Below, one piece after another: positions 3,460-58,416 of a stretch of 64,000 bases of DNA (within the stretch, counting starts at the first letter, position 1; every line of letters starts with the position of its first letter). The stretch comes from an uncultured virus (IMG/VR IMGVR_UViG_3300033141_000684). Taxonomy: Duplodnaviria > Heunggongvirae > Uroviricota > Caudoviricetes. A model generated the notes under the pieces. It was not told the DNA's origin. It saw only the letters and a list, made by a program, of their open reading frames with translations, and did no database searches. Location: the IMG/VR virus record IMGVR_UViG_3300033141_000684, one strand, 5' to 3'. The position numbers were made by a program, and so were the translations under genes.

Positions 3460-4046
3460 GCGACGCATTCAACCAAGCAGTCGAGACAGTCTTCGAACAC
3501 GAGGGCGGGCTTGTCGATCATCCTGACGACCCCGGCGGCATTACAAACTATGGCATCTCGTTGCGCTGGGCTCTTCAGCAGCACAAGCAGGTCGGAGACA
3601 TCGCGCTAGAGCTTCTTGACTTCGATGGCGACGGTGACGTCGACGCAGATGACATTCGTCAGATGCCTCGGGCTGCAGCGAAGAGCGCCTACCTCAAATT
3701 CTTCTGGAAGCCGAACCGCTACGACCGCATATTGCAAGATCACGTCGCGACGAAGGTCTTCGACATGTGTGTCAATATGGGCGCGGGCCAGGCGCACAAA
3801 ATAGTGCAGAGAGCCGTGCGTTCTGCTACTGGCGTCAAGATCGCAGACGATGGTATACTCGGGCGGATTTCCCTGCAGCAGATCAACGGGGCTGATTCCG
3901 ACATTCTGCTCGCAGCGACGAGATCAGAGCAGGCCGGATTTTACCGGGCTTTGATTTTACGCAACGACGCACTACGCAAGAACGGCATCAAAGTGCACGA
4001 CTTCAGCAAATTCAAAGAAGGCTGGTTGAGACGTGCCTATAGCTGA
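3456..4046 (+). CDS. Endolysin, glycoside hydrolase family 108 with C-terminal peptidoglycan-binding region
   Basis: HEGGLVDHPDDPGGITNYGI, FDMCVNMG, DGILG, F..GWLRR; GTG start at 3456. Confidence 0.92.
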   Translation: MSDAFNQAVETVFEHEGGLVDHPDDPGGITNYGISLRWALQQHKQVGDIALELLDFDGDGDVDADDIRQMPRAAAKSAYLKFFWKPNRYDRILQDHVATKVFDMCVNMGAGQAHKIVQRAVRSATGVKIADDGILGRISLQQINGADSDILLAATRSEQAGFYRALILRNDALRKNGIKVHDFSKFKEGWLRRAYS

Positions 4047-4161
4047 GTCTCTGATTCACATCATAGAGGTGATCACCTCGGTCATCTCTGGCATTTTTTG
4101 GGTGACCGGGCTGATAGTCTGGGCTTTTGTTTTTGCGTTCATTCGAGGGTTCAAAAAATGA
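4033..4161 (+). CDS. 42-aa single-TM peptide
   Basis: MPIAESLIHIIEVITSVISGIFWVTGLIVWAFVFAFIRGFKK; ATGA overlap with next gene. Confidence 0.5.
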   Translation: MPIAESLIHIIEVITSVISGIFWVTGLIVWAFVFAFIRGFKK

Positions 4162-4676
4162 GCAAGCGAGACATCTGGGGCGCAGTAAAAGGCATTGTTT
4201 CGAGCGTCGCGCCAACTGTAGCAACCGCGCTTGGCGGGCCAGTGGGCGGCATTGCCGCGAACATGATCAAGAAGGCGCTCGGGGTCGATTCAGACGAGGC
4301 AGCCATTCAGGCGCTTCAGTCTGACCCCGAGGCAGTCTTGAAACTAAAGATCGCCGAGATCGACTTCGACAAGTTTCTCGTTGAGGCTGATATTCGCAAA
4401 GACGAGCTTGTTGTCGAAGACCGCAAAGACGCTCGCGATCTGAGTAAGACGCTCGGCACTATTTGGCCGCAGATGACCATCGTCATCGCGCTGACCTTCA
4501 TGATCGCCGGCGTGATCTATGCGCTCTTTAAAACCGCACCACCACCTGAGACCGAGAACATTCTCTTCATGGTGCTCGGGCAGCTCACAACGGCCTGGGC
4601 CGCGTCGATCTCGTTCTTCGTGGGCACGACTAAGTCGAGCGCAGACAAAAGTAAACAGATCGCGGGGGGTAGGTAA
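4158..4676 (+). CDS. Holin-like membrane protein
   Basis: APTVATALGGPVGG N-terminus, DRKDAR, two TM helices, FFVGTTKSS. Confidence 0.7.
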   Translation: MSKRDIWGAVKGIVSSVAPTVATALGGPVGGIAANMIKKALGVDSDEAAIQALQSDPEAVLKLKIAEIDFDKFLVEADIRKDELVVEDRKDARDLSKTLGTIWPQMTIVIALTFMIAGVIYALFKTAPPPETENILFMVLGQLTTAWAASISFFVGTTKSSADKSKQIAGGR

Positions 4677-5152
4677 TGGCTAACGGCGGGCGCATCACGA
4701 AAAAGAACCTCGACAAGTTTCTCTCGCTACTGCGCGAGGGTTATTCTGTGCGCTCTGCCGTGCGCGGTGCGCGCATCTCTTCGTCTGGCGTTTACAAGAA
4801 GCGAGACCAAGACCCAGAATTCAGAGCCGCCTGGCAAGATGCACTTGACGAGGGAACCGGGCTTTACGAAGACGAGATGAAGAACCGCGTCTTCGAAGGC
4901 GAACCGATACTCGGCCGCGAGGGCGAGATTGTCGGCTTCAAGAAAAGCGATCGGCTTCTTGAGTTCGCTCTGCGATCACGAGACCCCGAGACCTATGCCG
5001 AAAAGCGCAAGACCGAACTGACGGGCGCGAACGGTGGGCCGCTTGAGACGTCAAACACGACAGAGATCGCGTTGACGCCTGAAGCGAGACAGCAACGCAT
5101 TCGCGATCTACGCGAAGCACTGGGAAAGAGAGAGACATCTGAAGATGATTAA
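4676..5152 (+). CDS. Terminase small subunit
   Basis: N-terminal HTH, DPEFRAAWQDA, SDRLLEF, ELTGANGGPL; upstream of TerL. Confidence 0.85.
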   Translation: MANGGRITKKNLDKFLSLLREGYSVRSAVRGARISSSGVYKKRDQDPEFRAAWQDALDEGTGLYEDEMKNRVFEGEPILGREGEIVGFKKSDRLLEFALRSRDPETYAEKRKTELTGANGGPLETSNTTEIALTPEARQQRIRDLREALGKRETSEDD

Positions 5153-5690
5153 CATAGAACACGCCGATATGGTACGCAGCCTGGTCAAGCCGGGCCAGCA
5201 CATCATGATCTGGCTCGAAGACGACAGCGTCGACTTATGGCACGCAGCGACCGGCCTCGTCGGCGAAGTGGGTGAGCTTGTTGAATGCGTCAACAGCGAC
5301 CCGTTCGACCTTGAGAACTTCATCGAAGAGCTAGGCGACATTGAGTTCTACTTGTGTCAGGCTCGACAGAACCTTGAGATCGACCGCGACTTCATCGTCA
5401 ACATGGGCTATCACGCGAAGCCCATGCTGCCGATGACCGGCCTTATGATTGCCGCTTGCGGCTTTCTTGATCAGGTCAAGAAGACGGTCATCTACAACAA
5501 GCCGACCGACCGAACCGAGTGCATCAAAGCGCTCGCCGACATAGAGCGCAGGCTTGAAGAGATCAGGGCCGTGCGGCTCGTTGACCGCAGCGAGACGCTG
5601 CGCGCCAACATCGACAAGCTCTCGCAACGCTACCCGAACGCCTCTTACTCTGACGAACACGCTCAGGCGCGTCTCGACAAGACGGGCTAA
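5145..5690 (+). CDS. MazG-like NTP pyrophosphohydrolase
   Basis: HAATGLVGEVGEL, EELGDIEFY, NIDKLSQRYP motifs. Confidence 0.8.
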   Translation: MINIEHADMVRSLVKPGQHIMIWLEDDSVDLWHAATGLVGEVGELVECVNSDPFDLENFIEELGDIEFYLCQARQNLEIDRDFIVNMGYHAKPMLPMTGLMIAACGFLDQVKKTVIYNKPTDRTECIKALADIERRLEEIRAVRLVDRSETLRANIDKLSQRYPNASYSDEHAQARLDKTG

Positions 5691-5693
5691 GTC

Positions 5694-7208
5694 GTGGCGG
5701 CAGCGGTCGACGAACTGGCTGAGCTGCAGCTCGAACTCGAACTCAGCAAGCTAGAGAGTGAAGAGAGCCTAGTCGACTTTATCAAGCACGGCTGGCGCTG
5801 GGTCGACCCTGCCTTCTACGTTGACGGCAAGCATACCGAGATCATCGCCGTGCACCTCGAAGCGATGGTGCGCGGTGAGCTGACGCCAGACGAGGTCTCG
5901 AAGATTCTGATCAACATACCGCCGGGCCATCAAAAGAGCCTGACGGTTTGCGTGTTCTGGCCGGCCTGGTGTTGGGGGCCGCTCAACCGACCCGACCTGC
6001 GCTTCATGTTCACCTCGTACCGGGGCGAGCTGGCACTTCGAGACGCTGATCGCTCTCGCCAGCTCATCAAGTCGCAATGGTATCAGATGAACTGGGGCAA
6101 CCGCTTCGAGCTGATCAGATCGCAAGACAGCAAGGGTCGCTTCGGCAACAACAAGGGCGGCTACCGATACAGCACCTCGATCGCGGGCATCATGGGGGAA
6201 GGTGGCGACTATGTGATTCTCGACGACCCGCACAACGTCGAGCAGGCTGAATCAGTCGATGTCAGGAAAGAGATGATTCGCAAGCTCGACCTCGCGCTAC
6301 CGACTCGGGTGCGTAATCCGAAGGGCGGCATCGTCGTCATCATGCAGCGGTTGCACGAGCAAGACTTCAGCGGTCACGTACTGCGCAACGAGCCCGACGA
6401 ATGGGTTCACCTATGTCTGCCGGCAGAGTACGAGGCCGACCATCCGACGCCGATCAAGACGCCATTGATCAACCCGGCAACGGGTGAGCCCTGGTGCGAC
6501 TGGCGAACCGAAGACGGCGAGCTGCTCTTTCCTGAGCTATTTGACGGCAACCGAATTCAGAAGCTCAAGGCACCGCTCGGCGTGTATGGTGTCGCCGGCC
6601 AGCTACAGCAGCGGCCGACCCCTCGCGAGGGTACGATGTTCAAGCGAGAAGACCTTGAGAACAACGTCATCACGCTCGAAGAGTTCAAGAGGCTCAAGAT
6701 GCGCAAGTGGTGTCGAGGCTGGGACTTCGCCGCGAGCAAAGACAAGGGCGACTTCACCTCGAACGTAAAGGGTGCGCTTGGGGTTGACAACAATGTATAC
6801 TTCGTGTTCTGTCAAGAAGTGAGAGAGTCAAGCTCGACTGTCAGGGCGATGTTTAAGCGATTCGTCGAGGCCGATGGCACCGGCGTCATCGCCAGGATAC
6901 CGCAAGACCCCGGACAGGCCGGTAAAGATCAGGCCGAGCAGTATCTCAAGCTCATGCCAGGCTACCCGGTCAAGGCCGTGCGGCCTACTGGTGACAAAGA
7001 GACAAGAGCCGAGCCGCTCTCTTCAGGCGTGCAAGTGGGCACCGTGAAGTTCGTGCTCGGCGATTGGAACGACACAATGTTCGAACGGCTGGCCGGCTTT
7101 CCCGCTCCCGGCTCGCCTGACGATGTTGTTGACGCGGCGGCGGATTGCTACAACGAACTCACGCTCGGGAATAACTTTAGCAGCGGTCAAAAGATAATGC
7201 AGGGCTAA
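5694..7208 (+). CDS. terL: Terminase large subunit
   Basis: INIPPGHQKS Walker A, ILDDPH Walker B, IMQRLHEQD, GWDFA and DDVVDA nuclease motifs. Confidence 0.95.
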   Translation: MAAAVDELAELQLELELSKLESEESLVDFIKHGWRWVDPAFYVDGKHTEIIAVHLEAMVRGELTPDEVSKILINIPPGHQKSLTVCVFWPAWCWGPLNRPDLRFMFTSYRGELALRDADRSRQLIKSQWYQMNWGNRFELIRSQDSKGRFGNNKGGYRYSTSIAGIMGEGGDYVILDDPHNVEQAESVDVRKEMIRKLDLALPTRVRNPKGGIVVIMQRLHEQDFSGHVLRNEPDEWVHLCLPAEYEADHPTPIKTPLINPATGEPWCDWRTEDGELLFPELFDGNRIQKLKAPLGVYGVAGQLQQRPTPREGTMFKREDLENNVITLEEFKRLKMRKWCRGWDFAASKDKGDFTSNVKGALGVDNNVYFVFCQEVRESSSTVRAMFKRFVEADGTGVIARIPQDPGQAGKDQAEQYLKLMPGYPVKAVRPTGDKETRAEPLSSGVQVGTVKFVLGDWNDTMFERLAGFPAPGSPDDVVDAAADCYNELTLGNNFSSGQKIMQG

Positions 7209-17800: not shown

Positions 17801-18637
17801 TCACTCTGCCTCGAACCCATTCTCGACGATGAAGGCCGCAGCCTTCTCGGCCATCGTCGCCGCCTTGCGAATCTGGTCGGGCTCGTCTTTGAGCGCCTTC
17901 AGCCAGCTCGCCAGGTAGCTCGCATGATTCTCAGGCTCTACCGGCACGCCGAGGCGCTCGCCAAGGTAGTACGCGCCCAGCTCGGCGACCAGCTCTTCGA
18001 AGGCGTAGCCTTCGCGGTTCTTGACCTGTAGGCCGCGATCGCAGCGAGACTTGTGGCCGGTCCAGTGCACCAGCTCGTGCAGCAAGGTGCCCCAGTAGCC
18101 GCGCTCGCTCTTGAACTGGTCGGCATTCGGCAGAACGACGCTGTCAGTCGCCGGCTGGTAGAAGGCTCGGTCGCCGCCGAAGCTCAGGTCGACGCCGAGG
18201 CGTTCGATCATGCTGTTCAACTTGTCGGCGTCGAAGCTCACGACGCGGGGCTCGACCTTCGGCAGCTCGATGCCTTCGCAATCGCTCTCGACGTTGAACA
18301 CGTTCGCAGAGCCGAAGCCGACGACGAAGGTGCTCTCTTTTCCGTTCGCGTCTTCGCGCTTCTTGATGATCGGGAACAAGATTTTCGTCGCCTTCGCGCC
18401 CTTGCGCACGTTGCCGCCGAGCTTCTTTGCCTGGTCATATCCGACCCAGTAAGGGCAGGGATTGATCAGCGCCAGGTAGAGCGCATTCAAGCCTCGGTAT
18501 GGCTTGCCGGTCTGCAGGTTCGTCGGCCATTCGGTCGCGCCGCGATCTTCCCAAGGCTTCTGCCAGGGCGCGGTGCCGGCCTGAATGGCTTCGATGACCT
18601 TGTTGACGATGTCGTTCATGAGTGCTTCGTTTTTCAT
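17801..18637 (-). CDS. ardC: ArdC-family antirestriction protein (ssDNA-binding plus zincin domain)
   Basis: PWQKPW, YRGLN, GGNVRKG, VFNV, LLHELVHWTGH, YAFEELVAELGA, HASYLASW. Confidence 0.92.
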   Translation of the reverse strand: MKNEALMNDIVNKVIEAIQAGTAPWQKPWEDRGATEWPTNLQTGKPYRGLNALYLALINPCPYWVGYDQAKKLGGNVRKGAKATKILFPIIKKREDANGKESTFVVGFGSANVFNVESDCEGIELPKVEPRVVSFDADKLNSMIERLGVDLSFGGDRAFYQPATDSVVLPNADQFKSERGYWGTLLHELVHWTGHKSRCDRGLQVKNREGYAFEELVAELGAYYLGERLGVPVEPENHASYLASWLKALKDEPDQIRKAATMAEKAAAFIVENGFEAE

Positions 18638-18666
18638 TGGTTCCTGCCTCGTTGTGTATTTCAATG

Positions 18667-18716: not shown

Positions 18717-18977
18717 CAGGTTTATATAACAAGTCGGTATTTCTCAAATCGCCCCGCTCGTGTATGATCTATGTCATAGGTGGAAAAGGGGCTTTTTACG
18801 GAACTGCCCCTAGTTCCGTCAAGTTTTGCCTCACCGAACCTTTACTCGCCTCGACCCCGCGATCAATAATTGAATCGAACCGAGACCGGCCTCGCGTTCG
18901 TTGCGCAGTCGTGCAACCTCGCCGGGCTGATCTCAAAATCGCAGCAGCGATCAATACAACCAGAGCGGAGCACTGCA

Positions 18978-19808
18978 ATGGATTTAGACCTGAATGACCC
19001 CGAAGTACAAGCCGCGATCGAGGCAGCAGCCAAGACGCAAGCCGAGGGCCAACTCTCCGAACTTCAGAACAGCATCGAAGCCCTGCAGGGCAACAATGCG
19101 AAACTGGTAGACGAGAAGAAAGCGGAAACCGAACGCGCCAAGCAACTCAAGGCAATCTTTGACGAGCTAGGCGGTGAAGACGAGATCAACAAGCTCAAGC
19201 AGGCGAAAGCCGAGGGCGACAAAGCGGCAGCTTTAAAGATGTTGGTCGAGGGAAACTTCGAAGAGTTTCAAGCCGCGATCACCGAGAAGGCGGTCGCAGG
19301 ATACGCGAAGCAAGTCGAAGCCGCGCAAGAGCAGGTCGAAAAATCCAACGGTGAGCGAGATGGGATTCTCGCGAAGTACAACGGCAAGCTGATCGACATC
19401 GCAGTACGCGAAGCGGCCGGCAAGGCAGAAGTACACCCTACGGCTGTCGCTGACATAGTGTTCAGAGCGCAGCAGCAGTTCTCGGTTCATGATGACGCGG
19501 TCGGCTTATTCGACGACAACGGCATCGCAAAGATCGGTGCAGACGGCAAGACGCCGTACAGCATCGGCGAATGGCTTGAAGAGCAACGAGAAACCGCGCC
19601 GCATTGGTGGCCGGCATCTCAGGGCGGCGGCGCTGGCGGAAGCCAGGGCGGCGGCTCAGGCGGCGGCGGTGACAACCCCTGGTCACGGTCTGGCTGGAAT
19701 CTGACTAAACAAGGTCAGGTGATCAAGCAGCAGGGGATGGAAAAAGCAGAGCAGCTCGCTAAGGCTGCAGGCTCGAAGATTGGATCGGTAGCACCTCCCG
19801 CCCGATAA
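18978..19808 (+). CDS. Capsid scaffolding protein
   Basis: Coiled coil, Gly-rich linker, NPW...NLTKQG; directly upstream of the major capsid gene. Confidence 0.85.
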   Translation: MDLDLNDPEVQAAIEAAAKTQAEGQLSELQNSIEALQGNNAKLVDEKKAETERAKQLKAIFDELGGEDEINKLKQAKAEGDKAAALKMLVEGNFEEFQAAITEKAVAGYAKQVEAAQEQVEKSNGERDGILAKYNGKLIDIAVREAAGKAEVHPTAVADIVFRAQQQFSVHDDAVGLFDDNGIAKIGADGKTPYSIGEWLEEQRETAPHWWPASQGGGAGGSQGGGSGGGGDNPWSRSGWNLTKQGQVIKQQGMEKAEQLAKAAGSKIGSVAPPAR

Positions 19809-19877
19809 CAATCTAAAGGCCGGTCTCAGGCGCGGCTCTTGCTTTGAAACTTTTCGTAAAAAACGGAGCTAAAAGCA

Positions 19878-20939
19878 ATGGCTGATACACAGGTAGCAGA
19901 CGTAGTCGTCCCTGAGATTTTCGGGCCGTATGTTCAGCAGCTCACCGAACAAAAAAGCCGCCTGATTCAGTCTGGCGCTGTTGTTCGTGACGCTGAACTC
20001 GACCAGAAACTCGCCGGCGGCGGTCTAACTTTTAACGCGCCTTCATGGCAAGACCTGGCTGACGATGATGACAACGTCAGCGACGACGTGCCCGCAAACA
20101 CCGCAACACCGAACAAGACCCAAACTTCGCAAGAAGTGGGCGTTCGTCTTTCTCGTAACCAGCACTGGTCGAGCATGGACCTGGCCGCAGCACTGGCTGG
20201 TGACGACCCGATGATGAGCATCGCTGACCGCGTTGCGGGCTACTGGGCTCGCCGACAGCAAGCTGCATTCGTTGCCACCATGACCGGCATTTTTGCAGAC
20301 AACACTGCAAACGATTCTGGTGACTACACAAACGACCTCGGCGCTTCAGTGTCTTTCTCTGCGTCTGGCTTCCTGGGCGGTCTGCTCACGATGGGCGACA
20401 GCATGGAAGACCTAGCGATGATCATGGTGCACTCGGTTGTCTTTAACAAGATGCAGAACGCGAACCTGATCGTCTACCGCGACGTGATTCAGCCCGAAGG
20501 TACGACCACGTCTACCCCGGTAGCAAGCACTGCAGTCGGCACTGCCGGCAACGTGCCTGTATCTCGCGGCGAGATTCGCATTCCTACCTACCTGGGCCGC
20601 CAGGTTATCGTTGACGACGGCCTGCCTAGCGCGGCCGGCGTATACGAGAGCTGGATCTTCGGCGCTGGTGCGGTACGCTTCGGACAGAGCACGCCTCGCG
20701 TACCTGTCGAAGTGACTCGCGAAGCCCTGACGGGTAACGGTGGTGGTCAAGAGATTCTCAGCTCTCGGGTTGAGTGGGCTATGCACCCCGTCGGTCACGC
20801 CTACACTGGCACCGCACCGAACGGTGGACCTAGCAACGCAGCTACCGCCAACAACCTCGGCGCAGCCGGTAGCTGGGATCGGGTTTATCCCGAACGCAAG
20901 CAGATCAAGATCGCTCGAATTCTCTCTGACGAGAACTAA
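19878..20939 (+). CDS. Major capsid protein
   Basis: DVVVPEIF, SRLIQSG, AGDDPM, YLGRQVIVDD, MHPVG, WDRVY motifs; GGAG RBS. Confidence 0.92.
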   Translation: MADTQVADVVVPEIFGPYVQQLTEQKSRLIQSGAVVRDAELDQKLAGGGLTFNAPSWQDLADDDDNVSDDVPANTATPNKTQTSQEVGVRLSRNQHWSSMDLAAALAGDDPMMSIADRVAGYWARRQQAAFVATMTGIFADNTANDSGDYTNDLGASVSFSASGFLGGLLTMGDSMEDLAMIMVHSVVFNKMQNANLIVYRDVIQPEGTTTSTPVASTAVGTAGNVPVSRGEIRIPTYLGRQVIVDDGLPSAAGVYESWIFGAGAVRFGQSTPRVPVEVTREALTGNGGGQEILSSRVEWAMHPVGHAYTGTAPNGGPSNAATANNLGAAGSWDRVYPERKQIKIARILSDEN

Positions 20940-40811: not shown

Positions 40812-43800
40812 ATGGAATTATTCACTTTATTTCTGATCAACGCCGCGCTCTTTGTCGCGGCCGAGCTTCTGCGACCGAAGCCCGAGATCGAAGACGCTGA
40901 GGCGACACCATTCGAAGAGGCTGCCTTTCCGTCAGTCGACCCGACCAAGAAAATACCGATTGTTCTCGGACGGGATACGATCAGATCACCGCACGTTGCT
41001 GACGTCACCGAATACAACACCGTGCCGATCACGAACAAGGTTAAGACCGGCCTATTCAGCAGCCAGCGCGTCACCGTAGGCTATCGCTACTTCGTCGGCA
41101 TGCAGCTCATGATCTGCGTCGGGCCGGTCACGCTGCGCAAGATTTACTGGGACGACGACGAAATATGGTCGGGCACCGCTGCAGCTAACCCGAACGGCGT
41201 CGCGATCGACATCGACCTGCCCGACTACCTGGGCGGCCGAGAAGAGGGTGGTGGCCTTGTTGGTCGCATCACGTTCTTCGCCGGCACCGCTACACAAAAC
41301 CAATCGAGCTACCTGGCGGGATTCCAGAGCGAAGGCATAGCCTACCGTCACACGGCGATGATCGTGCTTGAGAATTTCGAGGTCGGCGAGCAGCCAAACA
41401 TTCAGCCGATGGCCTTCGAGGTAGAAAATTATGTCAACCCGCTCGGCCTGGCTGCCGGCACAAACCTGATCGGCGACGACTTGAACCCGATGTCAATCGC
41501 GGCCGAAGTATTCACAAACGACGACTGGGGCTTCAGCGAGCCGATCTCTTCTGTGCAGGCGTTCGACGCTGTCGCAGCTACGCTCGACACCGAAGGCAAC
41601 GGCATGAGCATCAAGCTAGTCAAAGAGACGCGGCTCGACAAGCTGCTCAAGCAGATCGGCAAGCAGGTCGACGGCCAGCATCGCTACCGGCCAGACCTGA
41701 CCGCCTGGGATTACAAGCTATTCAGAGACGACTACACCGTCGGCTCGCTGCCGCATTACGGCGACACTGAAGGCAACGTGATCAAGTACAGCAACTTCAA
41801 GCGCGTCAACTGGGACGAGCTGAACAACTTGATCGAGGTCGTCTTCAGCGACCGCACGACGAAGACGAAGCCGAGCCCAGCCATTGCGCACGACCGCAGC
41901 TTGTACGATCGCCTTGGCGGCCGCAACAACCCGGTCACGCTACGCTTCCCCGGCGTGCACGACAGAACGCTCGCGAACAAGCTCGCGAACCGTGCACTCA
42001 GAAAAGGCGCTTTTCCATTTTCTGCCGTTGACATACTGGTCGACCGCAATGCGTACAACTTGCTACCGGGCGACGTGATCAAATGGTCAGAGTCGACGCT
42101 CGGCATCGACCAGCTAGTCATGCGCGTCATGAAAATCAGCCTCGGAACGCCAGATCAGTCAGAGATTCGCATATCACTCGTCGAGGATGTCTTCGCGCAA
42201 TCTTCTGCTTTGTTCAGCAATCCGCCGAACAGCTCATACGTGCCGAACAGCTCGGCCCCGATCAACACGACGGTCGGTCTATTCGAGGATCAGCCCTACT
42301 ACCTGGCGCAGTTCGACGAAGACCGCAGCGCAGTCGAGGGCGTCGAGAAGCTCTTGTCGGCGGCAGAGTCACCGCAGAACAACTCGCTATACTATGAGGT
42401 CGAGAGCCGTGCGGGCGTGCCTGGCACCGACCCTTATATTGTCGGCGAGCAAGTACCCTACACGCCGAGCGGCACCTTACAGGATGGTCTCGACGTCACC
42501 GAGGCGAACATCGACGAGGTCGCGACCCTGGTCGTCGAGGGCGTCTCGAACTCGGCGCTGCTTGACGACGAGCTTGCGGCCGTCACTGACGAAGAGATCA
42601 AGGCAGGCGGGCGTCACTTCATTCTGATCGAGCACGCAACCGAAGAGCACGAGATCGTCGCCTACGATTCGGCCTCACGAGCGGGCAGCACGATCACGTT
42701 GAACAACGTGCACCGAGGCATGATCGACACGCTGCCGCAGGATCACCCGATCGGCGCTCGCGTCTGGTTCCTCAACGCCGCAATGGGCACCTTGCCAGAC
42801 GAGTATACCGCGAGCGAAGACATTGACTTCAGATACTTCACCGTCGCCACAACGGGCAGGGCTGCCAGCGGTCTCGCCGGCACGATCGTCTTCAGAAATA
42901 GAACGGCTAGGCCTTATCTGCCTGGCAAGTTTGAGATCAACGGCCTTAGACTGCCGACCTCCACCTTCGCAGAAGATACGGCCTTTAACTTTGAGTGGCG
43001 TCACCGCGACAAAGAGACTGGCCGCGCTCAGTTCTCAGGCGACACGACTCAAGACGCTGCAGCAACCGACCTTGAGAGCGGCTTCGAGTACCGTCTTCGA
43101 ATCTACGACGATGACACGAACACGCTTCTCAGAACGCGCCAGGGCACCGGCACTGGGGCGGGCGAGTTCACGACCTACAGCACGACGACCGTCACCTACG
43201 ACTACCCGCTCGTCGATCAACAAGCTGACGGCGGGCCCTTCTCGACTTACCGGGTCGAGCTTGACGTCATCGACACCGCGACGGGCACGGTCGAATCGCT
43301 GCTCGACATCATTCGGGTCTTTACGGTTCTCGTACCGATCAACCTGCTCAAACGCGGCGAGATATATCAGGCACACACTGATCAGGGCACCGCGACGGCT
43401 TATTTCCCGATGGCCGAAGAGAGCGGCGCGATGGCCGACGTTATGGGCAGCTCGCCGAACATGACCTCAGTCGGCGCGAATGTCGGCTACCGCTCAGCGG
43501 GGCCGGCCGGCAATGACTACTCGGTCTTCATACCTGCAGAGCTGAACCACTACCTCACCATCGCAGACGACGCGACGAACGATATGGACGGGAATGTCGG
43601 CATAGGTTTCTGGTTCAGGTGCGGCCCGACCGATGGCGTCAACGATACGGCGCTCGTTTACAAGGGCTCGGTCACCGACGCCAGTAGCGCGAACACCTGG
43701 CGCATATACATCGACATCCTCGGCCGTCTGCGCTGGCAATGGAACACCGGCACGCGGAACGCATCAGTCTGGGACTCGAAGCGCGTCGACGACGGGCACT

Positions 43801-54331: not shown

Positions 54332-55396
54332 TCATTCTGTTACCTCGTGGGTCTCGATTAGTGTGCCGTTGAACTCTTGCTTCAGCGTGTCGACGACCTC
54401 GTCGCCGATCATGTTCTTCGCGTCTGCCTTGTATATCTCGACCGAGCTGTATCCGGTCGGGCCGTTCTTAAATACCTTGCCGGTGATCTTGTTCGTGTAG
54501 ACGACGTCGTCGTCGATCGCGTCGATCGGCTCTGCCCACGTCTCAAGCATCTGGGGCAAGTAGGCGTGCGAGGCGCAGCCGTTCATCTGCTGATTCTTGT
54601 CGAGCTGCAGGTTGTACTTCTCGCAGAGCCAGGTCGCCTCACCGTCGGGCGCTGCAGTCGCATGCACGCATGACCTGCAGGTCGGGACGGGTGCGGCTTT
54701 AGAATGGCAGGTCGCGCTATGGTCGCAGAAGTTACACTGCCACCATGCCGGGTCGTCAGAGATGCGCGCCGGCGGTTCGACTGACTCGATGATCGTGCGC
54801 GCTCGCTCCATGATCTGCACGAACTCTTTCTTGTTGAATTTGACGCGCTCAATGTAGAGGTCGTCGTCATTCTTGTTGACGGCCATATAGAGCGCCCGGT
54901 CGATTGAGCTGAGGCCCATATAAACCTGCATCTGCGCATAGTGCTCGGGCTTCGACTGCTCGACGCCATCCTTCACGAGTGACTTGAAGCTCTTATCGTT
55001 GTGCGTCTTCATCTCGATAATGTGCGGGCTCTTCGGGGCTTCGGGCACGCCTTCGGTCGCGATGCCGTCACCGCTGCCGCCGAAGTGACCGCCGTGCGCT
55101 GACCATTGCCATTGTTCGCTGGTGCGCGGGTCGATCTCAACGACCTCGACGCCGATGCGCTTCAACTCTTCAACGAAGACCGCCTCTTCTCGCTGGCCTC
55201 GATTGAACAGGCGCAGCACGCGACCGGGAAAGTTCGCGACCGTCGACCATCTGAACGAATACCAGATTGAGCGCGTGCACGGCCGGCCGATGATCGACGC
55301 GCCGAGGTGCTCTCTGAATCCGTTGCCGGCCCGGTCTTCCCAGCTCTTGAAGATCAGGTTGCGCGTGTTGTGCGTTGGCTCGGGCATTACCGCCAT
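54332..55396 (-). CDS. Cas4-like PD-(D/E)XK exonuclease
   Basis: GASIIG.PC.R, GSGDG, EMKT, QMQVYM, CNFC...C Fe-S-type cysteines. Confidence 0.88.
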   Translation of the reverse strand: MAVMPEPTHNTRNLIFKSWEDRAGNGFREHLGASIIGRPCTRSIWYSFRWSTVANFPGRVLRLFNRGQREEAVFVEELKRIGVEVVEIDPRTSEQWQWSAHGGHFGGSGDGIATEGVPEAPKSPHIIEMKTHNDKSFKSLVKDGVEQSKPEHYAQMQVYMGLSSIDRALYMAVNKNDDDLYIERVKFNKKEFVQIMERARTIIESVEPPARISDDPAWWQCNFCDHSATCHSKAAPVPTCRSCVHATAAPDGEATWLCEKYNLQLDKNQQMNGCASHAYLPQMLETWAEPIDAIDDDVVYTNKITGKVFKNGPTGYSSVEIYKADAKNMIGDEVVDTLKQEFNGTLIETHEVTE

Positions 55397-55427
55397 TCGT
55401 TTAACCTCATAAATTCAAACACGTCGC

Positions 55428-56033
55428 TCATGCCGCTCTTCTGCCGAGTATGTTGTGCTCCGGGTCGAAGACGTCGATCAATAGGTATTCTAACTGCGTG
55501 AGCTGCCTGTCAGCGAGGCTCGCGCCGTCGACATACAAGACCCCATCGAAGCATTTGTCTTTAATGTGTTGCCCTGATCTCTGTAATGCGCTCACTCGGC
55601 TTTGACCAATATAGACGACAGTCTCTTCGAGCATGAGCAGGTATATGCCCCTGCCGATGACGGGCGAGCGCGAGAATCTTATCTCTGAGATCGGCCCGCC
55701 TATATCGTAAGGAAAAAACTGATCGCCGTATAACTCGCAGTCTGCTGCGATTGAGACCATTCTGATCTCGGCCTTGATCTGGTCGGCAACGATCTTTCTC
55801 TCGCAATCTTCAGAGCAAGCGAAACGGGCGCTCGACGACGGCGGGCCGTCGTCGTCACTCTCATACTCTCGCAAGTCGCAGGGCGACCACGTCACGAGCG
55901 AAAGCTCGGGCGGATATGGCGCATATAATCTTGACGGGAAAGTTCGCCAACATCCACAACAATGGAGGTCATCGCGAGGGCCGAACTTTTTCGCGGCGCG
56001 ACTACCTTGAAGAACTGCTGGAAGTTTTGCCAT
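55428..56033 (-). CDS. GIY-YIG domain protein
   Basis: GIYLL....VVYIGQS...R..QH...E..LI...P.HN; TGATG coupling to the upstream gene. Confidence 0.7.
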   Translation of the reverse strand: MAKLPAVLQGSRAAKKFGPRDDLHCCGCWRTFPSRLYAPYPPELSLVTWSPCDLREYESDDDGPPSSSARFACSEDCERKIVADQIKAEIRMVSIAADCELYGDQFFPYDIGGPISEIRFSRSPVIGRGIYLLMLEETVVYIGQSRVSALQRSGQHIKDKCFDGVLYVDGASLADRQLTQLEYLLIDVFDPEHNILGRRAA

Positions 56034-57010
56034 CACCAAGCCCTCCAAAGATCTCGCAGCAACCGCTTCTGCACGTAACGGTTCGCTCTGTTGTGAATGT
56101 GGCCGACGCTCATATACAAGTGAGCCTCAGCTTTCGGAATCTGGGCCGCCGGCAAAACGATCAGACCCTTCGCTTCTGCGCGCTCGGTCTCGATCACCTT
56201 GCGGGCGTCGCGGGCGTCGCGGTACTTGTTAGCCTTGCGGGTGAGCGCGTCACCGATGACATACATGAGCGAGCGCCTGAGTGGTGAGTAACCTTGCTCG
56301 ATGCCTCGCTGCCCGGTCATGCGTCGCTGGCGTTCGCCGTTGATCACCGCCAAACCGAACCGTTTCCAGAGCTTCGACTCGTTCGAGTAATTGTCGAGCG
56401 GGCCTGACTCGCCGATGATCATAGCAAGGCCGAGCGGGCCGAAGCCGTTTATCGGCTCGGCAAACTCTTCCCAGACGGGCAGCTCTTTGACGACCTTCTT
56501 GAGTATGCGCTCGCGTCGCTTTTTCTCAGCCGTGAGCGGCTCACGCGCTTCGAGCATGGGGCCGATGTTCGCCGCAGCGATAACACCGAGCGGGTGCTCT
56601 TCGTTCTTGACGACGGCAGTGTAGAGCGCCTGGCCTTCTTTCGTACCGCCAGCAAGTCGCCGGCAGATGGACTTCGCCTGTAGCGTGATTCGCTGCTCTG
56701 CGCCCATCATGTCAGAGCGTGCGCGATGGTGCTCCCGCAGCTCTGCGCATAAGATTGCCCGGCCTAATCTGGTATGGTCGTCTCCGACGGCGCTATAGGG
56801 GGCCGGGCTTGAACCTGCAGCGGAACTAGAAGTTTGGTCGGTTTCGACAATGTAGAATTGACCGCTGCGTGACTGGACGCCTCCCGGCTGGGCGAGCTTT
56901 GATTGGCCCTTCTTAGGCACTACTCGGTCGGCCGGGCCGGGGGCGTTAATAGGGTGAGCGGCAACGCTGAGTTTGGCCGCCTTTGCGGCAATGGTTTTCT
57001 GACCGCTCAT
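56033..57010 (-). CDS. Nop-domain / IS110 C-terminal-like protein with no RuvC domain (TasA-like)
   Basis: Coiled coil, then INGFGPLGLAMIIGE, YSNESKLWKRFGL, YSPLRRSLMY, RANRYVQKRLLRDLW; no DEDD domain and no catalytic SG. Confidence 0.75.
   Translation of the reverse strand: MSGQKTIAAKAAKLSVAAHPINAPGPADRVVPKKGQSKLAQPGGVQSRSGQFYIVETDQTSSSAAGSSPAPYSAVGDDHTRLGRAILCAELREHHRARSDMMGAEQRITLQAKSICRRLAGGTKEGQALYTAVVKNEEHPLGVIAAANIGPMLEAREPLTAEKKRRERILKKVVKELPVWEEFAEPINGFGPLGLAMIIGESGPLDNYSNESKLWKRFGLAVINGERQRRMTGQRGIEQGYSPLRRSLMYVIGDALTRKANKYRDARDARKVIETERAEAKGLIVLPAAQIPKAEAHLYMSVGHIHNRANRYVQKRLLRDLWRAW
56757..57009 (-). ncRNA. Four-unit stem-loop dual-spacer guide array (TIGR-like)
   Basis: Each unit is outer stem-YCN-N9-YG-inner hairpin-CCA-N9/10-NN-outer stem; units at 56955-57009, 56877-56946, 56817-56868, 56757-56808. 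Confidence 0.78.
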
Positions 57011-57525
57011 AATCCGAACCTCGTCGCGAGGTTGCTCAACTGTTGCTCACCGAACACTTCGGCGACCGTGCGGTTACCGACCCGGTAGAGCAGGTTCGCG
57101 TAGAACGCGCCGAGATTGCTCTCGTTGCGGGCTCGATCTTTGTGGTGATCGGCTGCGCGAGAGAGTAAGTCGCGGTTGGCATCACCGAGGCGTGAGCCGT
57201 TGAAGAGCTTCATGTCGAGCATGCTGCGACGGCCGGCTGCGACGAGCGCCGGGTCTGGTTGCCGGGGCTCGATCTTGACGACCTTAGTCGAAGGCGTCGG
57301 CTCTTTGGTGACGACGTCGGTCGCTGGCTTATCTAGCTGCTTGATCAGCTCCCAGATAGCGAGGTCTAACTTCGGGCGCAAGAGCGTCTTAAAGAGAACA
57401 CTGTCGGCCATCACTCGCCGCTCGATCGCTTCGGCGGCTTCGGTTCTGGTCGCTGACTCTTCGATGATTTTAATCGCCATCGAGCGCAGGCGTGTCAGAG
57501 CGAGCGGGTCTTTCTCAGTTTGCAT
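57007..57525 (-). CDS. Hypothetical protein coupled to the TasA-like gene
   Basis: ATGA overlap at 57007-57010. Confidence 0.7.
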   Translation of the reverse strand: MQTEKDPLALTRLRSMAIKIIEESATRTEAAEAIERRVMADSVLFKTLLRPKLDLAIWELIKQLDKPATDVVTKEPTPSTKVVKIEPRQPDPALVAAGRRSMLDMKLFNGSRLGDANRDLLSRAADHHKDRARNESNLGAFYANLLYRVGNRTVAEVFGEQQLSNLATRFGL

Positions 57526-57784
57526 CGCGAACCTCTCTGCGTTCTTCTGCGACGCCTGCGTAATAGTAGCCGGCTTGCTGGGCGGCGTGGTTGCGCTTGT
57601 TGCGCTCAGCGCGTCGGTTGCGCTTGCGGTTCGCCTTTATCTGCATCTCGATCACCGTGTCGGGGCTCGGCTTGGGCGGCATTATTGTGCGACCGCTTGG
57701 CTCGCCGACTGCGCGTTCGAGCGCGTCAGAGATCGCCTTGAAAAAACCGGCCTGGTGTTGCCGTGCAACTTGTTTCTGTTTCAT
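57515..57784 (-). CDS. Small basic protein
   Basis: GCAGGAA RBS; Arg/Lys-rich. Confidence 0.6.
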   Translation of the reverse strand: MKQKQVARQHQAGFFKAISDALERAVGEPSGRTIMPPKPSPDTVIEMQIKANRKRNRRAERNKRNHAAQQAGYYYAGVAEERREVRDAN

Positions 57785-57876
57785 GTTCCTGCCTTTTCGA
57801 CTGTTTGTTGAAGGTTGAAGGGCCGACCGTGGAGGGGTCAGCCGGCCCTTCGGGGCTCAGCTCAAGGGGAGAGCTT

Positions 57877-58416
57877 TTACTGAGCCCATGCCGGCCTGTC
57901 GCCTGCAGCGGGCGCTACTGGCGGGGCCGTATTGGCTACACCCTGAGCGGGTGCGACTGGGGCGGGCGCGGCCTGTTGTCCGACGGGTGTCGGGGCTGCG
58001 CCGCCCATAGCTGGGGCTAGAGCCGACGCCTTGAACTTCTTGATGATGTTCTTGTCGTCGTACTGGCCGGTCTTGTCGACCTCGATGCCGACCGCACCGA
58101 TGAACGGCTTGTCGTGCAACTGCGTGCTATCGCTGACCTGCATCACGCCGACAGCTCGGCAAAGGCCAGACAGCTCGCGCTGACCGATCTCTTCTGCGGT
58201 CGGGTTCTGGTTTGCGATGTTGATGCGGCCGAAAATCTTGCGGCCGGCATACTGACCCTCAAGCACCTCGGCCTCGTATTCGAGATAGTGTCCGGTGCCG
58301 GCCTTGGTCGGCTTGATGTCGGTCGAGCGAATGCAGAGCAAATAGTCGCCTTTCGGGAAGGTATCGTATGAGCTGCTCGGGTCTACTTGGGAAGCGTCAA
58401 AATTCATTTGAGCCAT
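57877..58416 (-). CDS. Single-stranded DNA-binding protein (DUF669-type)
   Basis: PKGDY, KPTKAGTG.YL, GRKIF, LCRAVG, LHDKP, Pro/Ala tail ending PAWA; next to Sak4. Confidence 0.85.
   Translation of the reverse strand: MAQMNFDASQVDPSSSYDTFPKGDYLLCIRSTDIKPTKAGTGHYLEYEAEVLEGQYAGRKIFGRINIANQNPTAEEIGQRELSGLCRAVGVMQVSDSTQLHDKPFIGAVGIEVDKTGQYDDKNIIKKFKASALAPAMGGAAPTPVGQQAAPAPVAPAQGVANTAPPVAPAAGDRPAWAQ

Follow-up and report, generated by a model that had tools for sequence, protein, structure and literature searches.

A probable stem-loop TIGR array of four guide units inside the tasA reading frame of a tailed phage

TIGR-Tas is a CRISPR-like, RNA-guided DNA-binding system that was described in 2025–26. 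In a 64,000-nucleotide stretch of DNA from an uncultured tailed phage (Caudoviricetes; IMG/VR record IMGVR_UViG_3300033141_000684), which we refer to throughout as the window, we find what is very probably a TIGR array of the stem-loop type, made up of four guide units and lying in frame within the first 84–85 codons of the phage's tasA gene. Stem-loop TIGR arrays were defined in Faure et al. 2025, where, in the part of the account we draw on, TasA is the nuclease-free form of the protein (PMC12045711), and the array in the window broadly fits that published definition. The original prediction had read these hairpins as TIGR-like guides for an adjacent protein; the TIGR part of that reading is supported by the identity of the protein as a Tas and by the strand on which units lie in related loci (392 against 15), and it is the placement that has to be corrected, since the array is not beside the gene but in that protein's own 5′ coding region.

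The four units stand in tandem on the minus strand at 56757–57009, and can be read from the sequence as variations on one plan: an outer stem, a 3-nt box, a 9-nt segment, a 2-nt box, a mini-hairpin, CCA, a second 9-nt segment (10 nt in U1), a 2-nt box and the closing outer stem. U1 (56955–57009, 55 nt) has the form TGAGCGG-TCA-N9-TG-CCGCAAAGGCGG-CCA-N10-TG-CCGCTCA, in which the outer stem pairs 57003–57009 with 56955–56961, the outer box C (TCA) is at 57000–57002, spacer A (56991–56999) is followed by a box D TG, the mini-hairpin loop covers 56977–56988, the inner box C (CCA) is at 56974–56976 and the 10-nt spacer B (56964–56973) is again followed by a box D TG. U2, with a core at 56886–56938 and an imperfect stem that extends to about 56878–56946, is written GGCCCGG-CCG-N9-TG-(11-nt loop)-CCA-N9-CG-CCCAGCC; here CCG stands at the outer box C, spacer A (56920–56928) leads to a box D TG and the 11-nt loop, the inner box C (CCA, 56904–56906) precedes spacer B (56895–56903) and a box D CG, and a covariance-model alignment places two non-pairs in the outer stem. 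U3 (56817–56868) and U4 (56757–56808) are each 52 nt long with 7-bp outer stems. The former, GCAGCGG-TCA-N9-TG-TCGAAACCGA-CCA-N9-TT-CCGCTGC, has spacer A at 56850–56858, a box D TG, the mini-hairpin TCGAAACCGA, spacer B at 56826–56834 and a variant outer box D, TT; the latter, GCCCGGC-CCC-N9-CG-TCGGAGACGA-CCA-N9-AG-GCCGGGC, combines a variant outer box C (CCC), spacer A at 56790–56798, an inner box D CG, the mini-hairpin TCGGAGACGA, an inner box C CCA, spacer B at 56766–56774 and a variant outer box D, AG, and its end coincides with codon 85, where the conserved protein domain starts.

Much of what had been claimed about this layout is borne out by our parse of the sequence and by RNA folding. 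Folding had been suggested as a check, and the minimum-free-energy fold of 56740–57020 on the minus strand does give all four double-stem units at the predicted positions. The stems were said to differ in sequence while keeping their pairing, and indeed those of U1, U3 and U4 are perfect 7-bp helices of differing sequence, that of U2 being imperfect, as had also been noted. The spacers measure 9 and 10 nt in U1 and 9 and 9 nt in each of U2, U3 and U4, all of them different in sequence, so the picture of 9-nt segments with a single 10-nt exception, and of two units of exactly 52 nt, agrees with ours. The box motifs are a more mixed matter: they are given as CCA and UG in a preprint on a yeast tool (10.64898/2026.07.30.739390, as far as the available account goes), and in the window the inner box C is CCA in all four units, but the outer box C reads TCA, CCG, TCA and CCC and is never CCA.

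The array forms the 5′ end of the open reading frame 56033–57010 and lies on the same strand as the gene. The 5′ stem of U1 begins at base 2 of the tasA ATG, so that it takes in all of the start codon but its first base, together with the TGA stop of the gene upstream. Across the whole array, the tasA frame contains no stop codon, against three and four in the other two frames, and the GC content by codon position is flat (.63/.56/.60), in contrast to the rest of tasA (.64/.43/.74), which, like the neighbouring genes, has the usual coding-type pattern; it therefore appears that RNA constraints rather than codon usage shape the sequence here. One gene caller places the tasA start at M101/M102, a choice that we reject because conservation in the alignment of relatives begins at about residue 85 and includes the nearly invariant R96 and R98. 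Before codon 101, the only in-frame ATG, GTG or TTG codons are ATG1 and GTG31, and ATG1 has a GAGG 9–12 nt upstream. The ribosome thus appears to read through the array as an N-terminal tail of TasA, although the sequence of that tail is apparently shaped by its RNA.

The protein itself (tasA, 56033–57010, minus strand, 325 aa) consists of the array-encoded tail, a predicted coiled coil and a Nop-like C-terminal domain. Searched against solved structures with phmmer, it has one real match, 9mty_A (E 3.8e-10, residues 164–282), and 9MTY is the TasR–tigRNA–DNA complex of Faure et al. 2025, as reported there (PMC12045711). Residues 155–325 match NCBIfam NF052498, TIGR_Tas_endo ('TIGR-Tas system RNA-guided endonuclease'), with an E-value of 1.7e-26 and a score of 93.6 bits, which is below the 100-bit cut-off of that model; among PHROGs the match is phrog_4285, 'transposase' (E 3.4e-19), and Pfam returns a sub-threshold Transposase_20 alone (E 0.033, 15 bits against a cut-off of 21.3 bits). 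An AlphaFold2 model built from 120 sequences has a mean pLDDT of 85.6, and it predicts residues 1–77, the array-encoded part, to be disordered (residues 1–61 fall below 50), followed by long coiled-coil helices at residues 78–174 and the Nop-like RNA-binding domain at 178–325, with residues 81–325 at 95 or above and nearly all helical. The helices at 78–120, 123–134 and 142–174, which precede the Nop-like domain at a pLDDT of about 98, make up a candidate dimerisation region. When this model was compared with the PDB by Foldseek, every one of the top 10 matches was a chain of TasR or TasH (E 3.4e-7 to 3e-4), with the IS621/ISCro4 recombinases at ranks 12–15, and Prp31 and Nop5 appearing only at E values of about 0.6–0.7. 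As judged by phmmer, NCBIfam and Foldseek alike, the open reading frame is a member of the Tas family. Pfam finds no RuvC or HNH domain in it, and outside the helical part at residues 78–325 the model leaves just the disordered tail; lacking either nuclease domain, the protein is therefore a TasA.

The transposase labels deserve a comment, because the IS110/IS621 recombinases with their bridge RNAs do have a related RNA-binding domain, as seen in the Transposase_20 and Foldseek matches above, and a bridge RNA is a guide with two internal loops, in which there is a likeness to the units in the window. We nevertheless rejected an IS110 transposase identity, given that the Transposase_20 match is sub-threshold and that the model has no N-terminal fold where the DEDD RuvC-like domain of such an enzyme would be, its first 77 residues being predicted as disordered. 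In addition, in place of one bridge RNA the window has four units in tandem, and tasA sits in a phage replication/recombination operon and not in a transposon.

What can be learned from relatives carries much of the weight of our reading. A protein search with TasA gave 188 homologs at E ≤1e-3, most of which cover only query residues of about 85–325 and whose total lengths vary widely, and a search with an alignment as query returned 80 viral and 48 genome loci. Searching by peptide pattern for closer relatives returned identical copies alone from viral contigs and nothing from genome contigs. We then applied a strict scanner (a stem of at least 6 bp, YCA, 8–11 nt, YG, a loop of 0–24 nt, YCA, 8–11 nt, YG and the closing stem) to 126 related loci. 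The tas strand yielded 392 units and the opposite strand 15. These counts are only partly independent, since the window itself is represented among the loci by one copy (L005) and the two collections overlap in some contigs; it is through L005, which is identical to the window, that U1 passes the strict scan. Of the 392 units, 235 are found at most 800 nt upstream of the point where the conserved domain begins and 83 just past the stop, and 88 of the 126 loci have at least one upstream unit. Although lengths of 8–11 nt were permitted, spacer A is 9 nt in 380/392 units and spacer B in 377/392, and there are 345 distinct forms of spacer A, 344 of spacer B and 319 of the stems. The linker between box D and box C is 4 nt in 313/392 units and 8–13 nt in 64/392, the latter mostly as a mini-hairpin such as CCGAAAGG, which is the form seen in the window.

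The relatives also repeat the arrangement within the reading frame. Going upstream from the conserved domain in 114 loci, the tas frame runs a median of 301.5 nt before a stop, as compared with 96 and 46.5 nt in the other frames, and 152/226 upstream units lie inside the open tas frame, as compared with 48 and 23 for the other two. As a separate observation, the first base of the outer box C of upstream units falls at tas-frame offsets 1, 2 and 0 in 112, 87 and 27 cases, an unevenness that accounts for recurring Gly-Gln and Gly-His dipeptides in the N-terminal tails of the relatives. The closest distinct relative, L008, which is 57% identical, shares the gene upstream and its ATGA overlap with tas; the first L008 unit, whose start lies 6 nt after the ATG, aligns with U1 in the inner stem, the boxes and 6/9 letters of spacer A, but at the place of the 12-nt hairpin of U1 it has a linker of 4 nt. 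Beyond this first unit the arrays of L008 and the window are not alignable, which tells us that the N-terminal region of TasA is not conserved as protein and that the guides differ. That homologous loci should have such units with spacers that vary was a further expectation of the original prediction, and it is what we see, both in the 345 distinct A spacers among 392 units and in the differing guides of L008.

Although the scanner placed no demand on the inner helix, that helix is 96.4% paired in 50 family units with a mini-hairpin, and in three of its four pairs both partners vary. The covariation score of the whole structure over the same 50 units is 0.608, against 0.122 in shuffles, and none of 500 shuffles reaches it, bearing in mind that the outer stem and box letters of those units had been imposed by the scanner. 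A covariance model trained on these 50 units, with the window and its copies excluded, was then run over the whole window with filters off. Among the 29 hits over 128 kb, U3 takes rank 1 (23.0 bits, E 0.017), U2 rank 2 (17.4 bits, E 0.23) and U1 rank 3 (16.8 bits, E 0.31), scores that are weak and E-values that are rough, and these top three stand side by side on the expected strand; U4 comes in only at rank 21 (9.7 bits, E 7.9). Such a model, built from homologous loci, had been suggested as a check, and it places three of the four units highest, at weak scores, but not U4.

It must be said that a single unit of this shape is no rarity, and that significance from structure alone is absent. 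A definition based on structure only has 40 matches in the window, counting both strands, against 9–34 in 20 dinucleotide shuffles, a loose motif scan picks out about seven further places in the window, and the fold of 56740–57020 (minus strand) has a z-score of −2.54, with 3/200 shuffles folding equally well. An inverted-repeat listing of 55000–58000 on the minus strand contained no additional unit of TIGR layout, and none downstream of tasA. The array weighs beyond chance because four units adjoin on one strand, and because of their covariance-model ranks.

A further question is whether the units still work as guides, and here the boxes matter. The inner boxes are canonical in all four (box D TG, TG, TG and CG, each with a box C of CCA), whereas the outer box D reads TG, CG, TT and AG from U1 to U4, alongside the outer box C variants given above. 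Two things are unusual here, namely that no outer box C is CCA and that the U1 stem covers the start codon. When the family was scanned again with the outer boxes left free, the tas strand gave 383 units and the other strand 20; among the 383, the outer box C was CCA in 294 (77%), CCG in 30, CCT in 18, CCC in 13 and TCA in 6, and the outer box D was TG or CG in 359, AG in 8 and TT in 4. The variant outer boxes and the imperfect U2 stem therefore mean that some or all of the units may be poor guides, and the array may be drifting, or be constrained by translation, or be typical of a small subclade.

Taken furthest, this becomes the view that the array is decaying, that its units have drifted from tigRNA ancestors so that few or none now guide, and that the region persists mainly as a tolerated disordered tail of TasA. 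We consider this unlikely. It would account for an outer box C of CCA in 0/4 units against 294/383 in the family, the two non-canonical outer D boxes, the imperfect U2 stem and the low covariance-model scores (just 9.7 bits for U4), and it sits well with the lack of a downstream array in the window, whereas 83/392 family units are found just past a tas stop. However, decay would hardly be expected to leave outer stems perfect or near-perfect in 4/4 units, inner D and C boxes canonical in 4/4, the mini-hairpins kept and an exact 9-nt spacing in 7/8 spacers; every variant form of the boxes is also found in otherwise well-formed family units, and the array is identical in the contigs of another sequencing run (run X2, record 7, with 0 differences). 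A second view, to which we would give very little credence, is that the units are mainly structures on the tasA mRNA that bind TasA or block the ribosome, tuning translation rather than guiding. The inclusion of two start-codon bases in the U1 stem suggests this, as does the first unit of L008 so shortly (6 nt) after its ATG, but regulation alone has no need of two 9-nt variable segments per unit or of four different units, the same units are present in relatives at places outside the gene, both upstream and after the stop, and a regulatory role and a guide role are not mutually exclusive. Finally, it is very unlikely that a GC-rich, low-complexity coding stretch has formed these hairpins by chance, without any RNA function, for even though single units are common (the window has 40, shuffles about 20) and the fold z-score is just −2.54, an independently trained model puts its ranks 1–3 into these 253 nt, on the right strand, the gene around them encodes a Tas, and the relatives' units (392 against 15 on the other strand) come with an opposite-strand control that argues against a scanner artefact.

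Turning back to the array as a set of putative guides, its surroundings are those of a phage. The gene upstream of tasA (57007–57525, minus strand) encodes 172 aa with no family match, and its stop overlaps the tasA start as ATGA, a junction common to the window and L008; tblastn finds matches to its C-terminal part just upstream of tas in L008, L045, L085 and L109, and this open reading frame may be a companion gene of tasA. The other neighbours form a phage replication/recombination module (Sak4-like, DUF669 SSB, Cas4-domain exonuclease and helicase genes), and elsewhere the window encodes terminase, portal, major head, tape-measure, tail and endolysin proteins. We also noticed a 287-aa open reading frame at 17801–18664 on the minus strand, just upstream of the genes for head scaffolding and major head protein (18870–20939), that matches phrog_7245, 'anti-restriction protein', with E 1.3e-75. 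Identical copies of tasA occur in three IMG/VR viral contigs, and contigs from the metagenome runs of several studies, on sediment, marine sediment and hydrothermal vents, contain DNA nearly identical to 55900–57600, none of the runs listed for it being recorded as RNA; across four runs there are four single-base differences in that region, none of them in the array, and run X2, which alone covers the array fully, has none there.

One relative deserves separate mention. Rhizobium phage RHph_X2_25 (L001, MW960032.1; locus 3630–5832) encodes a 'hypothetical protein', QWY83253.1 (4722–5777), that is 33% identical to the TasA of the window, and the covariance model finds hits, all on the gene strand, before the gene at 4317, 4372 and 4651 and inside its 5′ end at 4837 and 4896, with a further unit at 5787, ten bases after the stop, and a weaker hit at 3630. 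On these matches, this cultured phage carries an unannotated TIGR-TasA system, and, being cultured, it is usable at the bench for the study of TIGR-TasA.

With regard to targets, a search of the window for 18-bp sites, with both spacer arrangements, gaps of 0–2 and up to four mismatches, gave a best match with three mismatches (43517–43535), which is at chance level. Similarly, 330 family guides searched against 732 kb of loci gave 4 hits at one mismatch and 82 at two, where mispaired and reversed controls gave 2–11 and 67–92, so that real guides are not in excess. One of the hits with a single mismatch pairs a guide of L096, a Rhodoplanes elegans scaffold, in the rcB+A arrangement, with window positions 56183–56200, at about residues 270–276 of tasA; this may be chance, because the controls yield as many hits of that quality. 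For processing, a CUU motif at the base of the stem has been described as the processing site by Xu et al. (bioRxiv 10.64898/2026.09.09.750476, in the part of that account available). Near the units of the window, CTT is found 4–6 nt after U4 only, and in the family it occurs within 8 nt downstream in 53/346 units against a background of 0.063, a modest enrichment. We also observed that in the units of relatives (L008–L132) the 12 nt after the 3′ stem are rich in A and C, with a weak A-C-C-C-x-T-T consensus and with G down to about 0.11 at +1 to +4, and this flank may relate to the published CUU site.

Is this a new kind of system? The original prediction implied high novelty, and in this it does not hold, because every main feature of the locus has already been described in print. 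In the portions of their preprint available, Xu et al. report 2,559 stem-loop arrays, intragenic arrays in disordered regions of Tas proteins, inter-spacer loops that form a hairpin in some clades, and TasA as an RNA-guided transcription repressor (bioRxiv 10.64898/2026.09.09.750476), and structures of PlTasA with a stem-loop tigRNA are the subject of Guan et al. (bioRxiv 10.64898/2026.08.11.744272), again going by a partial account. The known stem-loop systems with a TasA, namely PlTasA (Faure et al. 2025; Guan et al.), which comes from a gut contig of Peromyscus leucopus, and BlTasA and MbTasA (Xu et al.), are likewise described as having a nuclease-free Nop/coiled-coil protein, and share with ours intragenic units in a disordered region, an inter-spacer hairpin in some clades and a phage origin. 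Where the window differs from these systems, as far as their published descriptions allow the comparison, is that its entire four-unit array lies within the first 85 codons, starting from base 2 of the start codon, that its outer box C is never CCA, and that neither side of the gene showed a further array; PlTasA and BlTasA were not among the PDB matches of our protein. The dual-repeat TIGR-TasR and TasH systems (TaTasR, 9MTY; SpTasH, 9VZX and related entries) provide the best sequence and fold matches to the coiled coil and Nop-like domain, and have the dual 9-nt spacer logic and the CCA/UG boxes in common with the array, but they have conserved edge and loop repeats, 36-nt tigRNAs and a RuvC or HNH nuclease, whereas in the window the stems vary, the units are 52–55 nt long and there is no nuclease.

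How might such a locus operate? Drawing on the literature on relatives for transcription, processing, binding, DNA targeting and repression alike, we would suggest that the operon transcript of tasA also carries the four hairpin units. On some transcripts, translation from the ATG at 57010 would yield TasA with its disordered N-terminal tail, while others would be processed by a host RNase to tigRNAs about 52–55 nt long. A TasA dimer, held together by the coiled coil, would then bind through its Nop-like domain, gripping a tigRNA by its box C/box D corners, and the two 9-nt spacers of that tigRNA would base-pair at an 18-bp DNA site, each with a different strand. As a TasA has no nuclease domain, it would bind and block the DNA rather than cut it, for example by repressing transcription. 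A bolder elaboration, which we think rather improbable, is that a translate-or-cut switch on each transcript sets the ratio of protein to guide, and that the loss of the outer CCA marks a subclade that reads the two halves of its guides differently; the translate-or-cut choice is suggested by the U1 stem, which contains start-codon bases, and by the fact that the coding region has all four guides within its first 253 nt. At the least, the locus adds a compact, fully intragenic four-guide example of TIGR-TasA from an environmental tailed phage, and its first guide that overlaps the start codon and its odd outer boxes are modest peculiarities that are perhaps worth attention at the bench.
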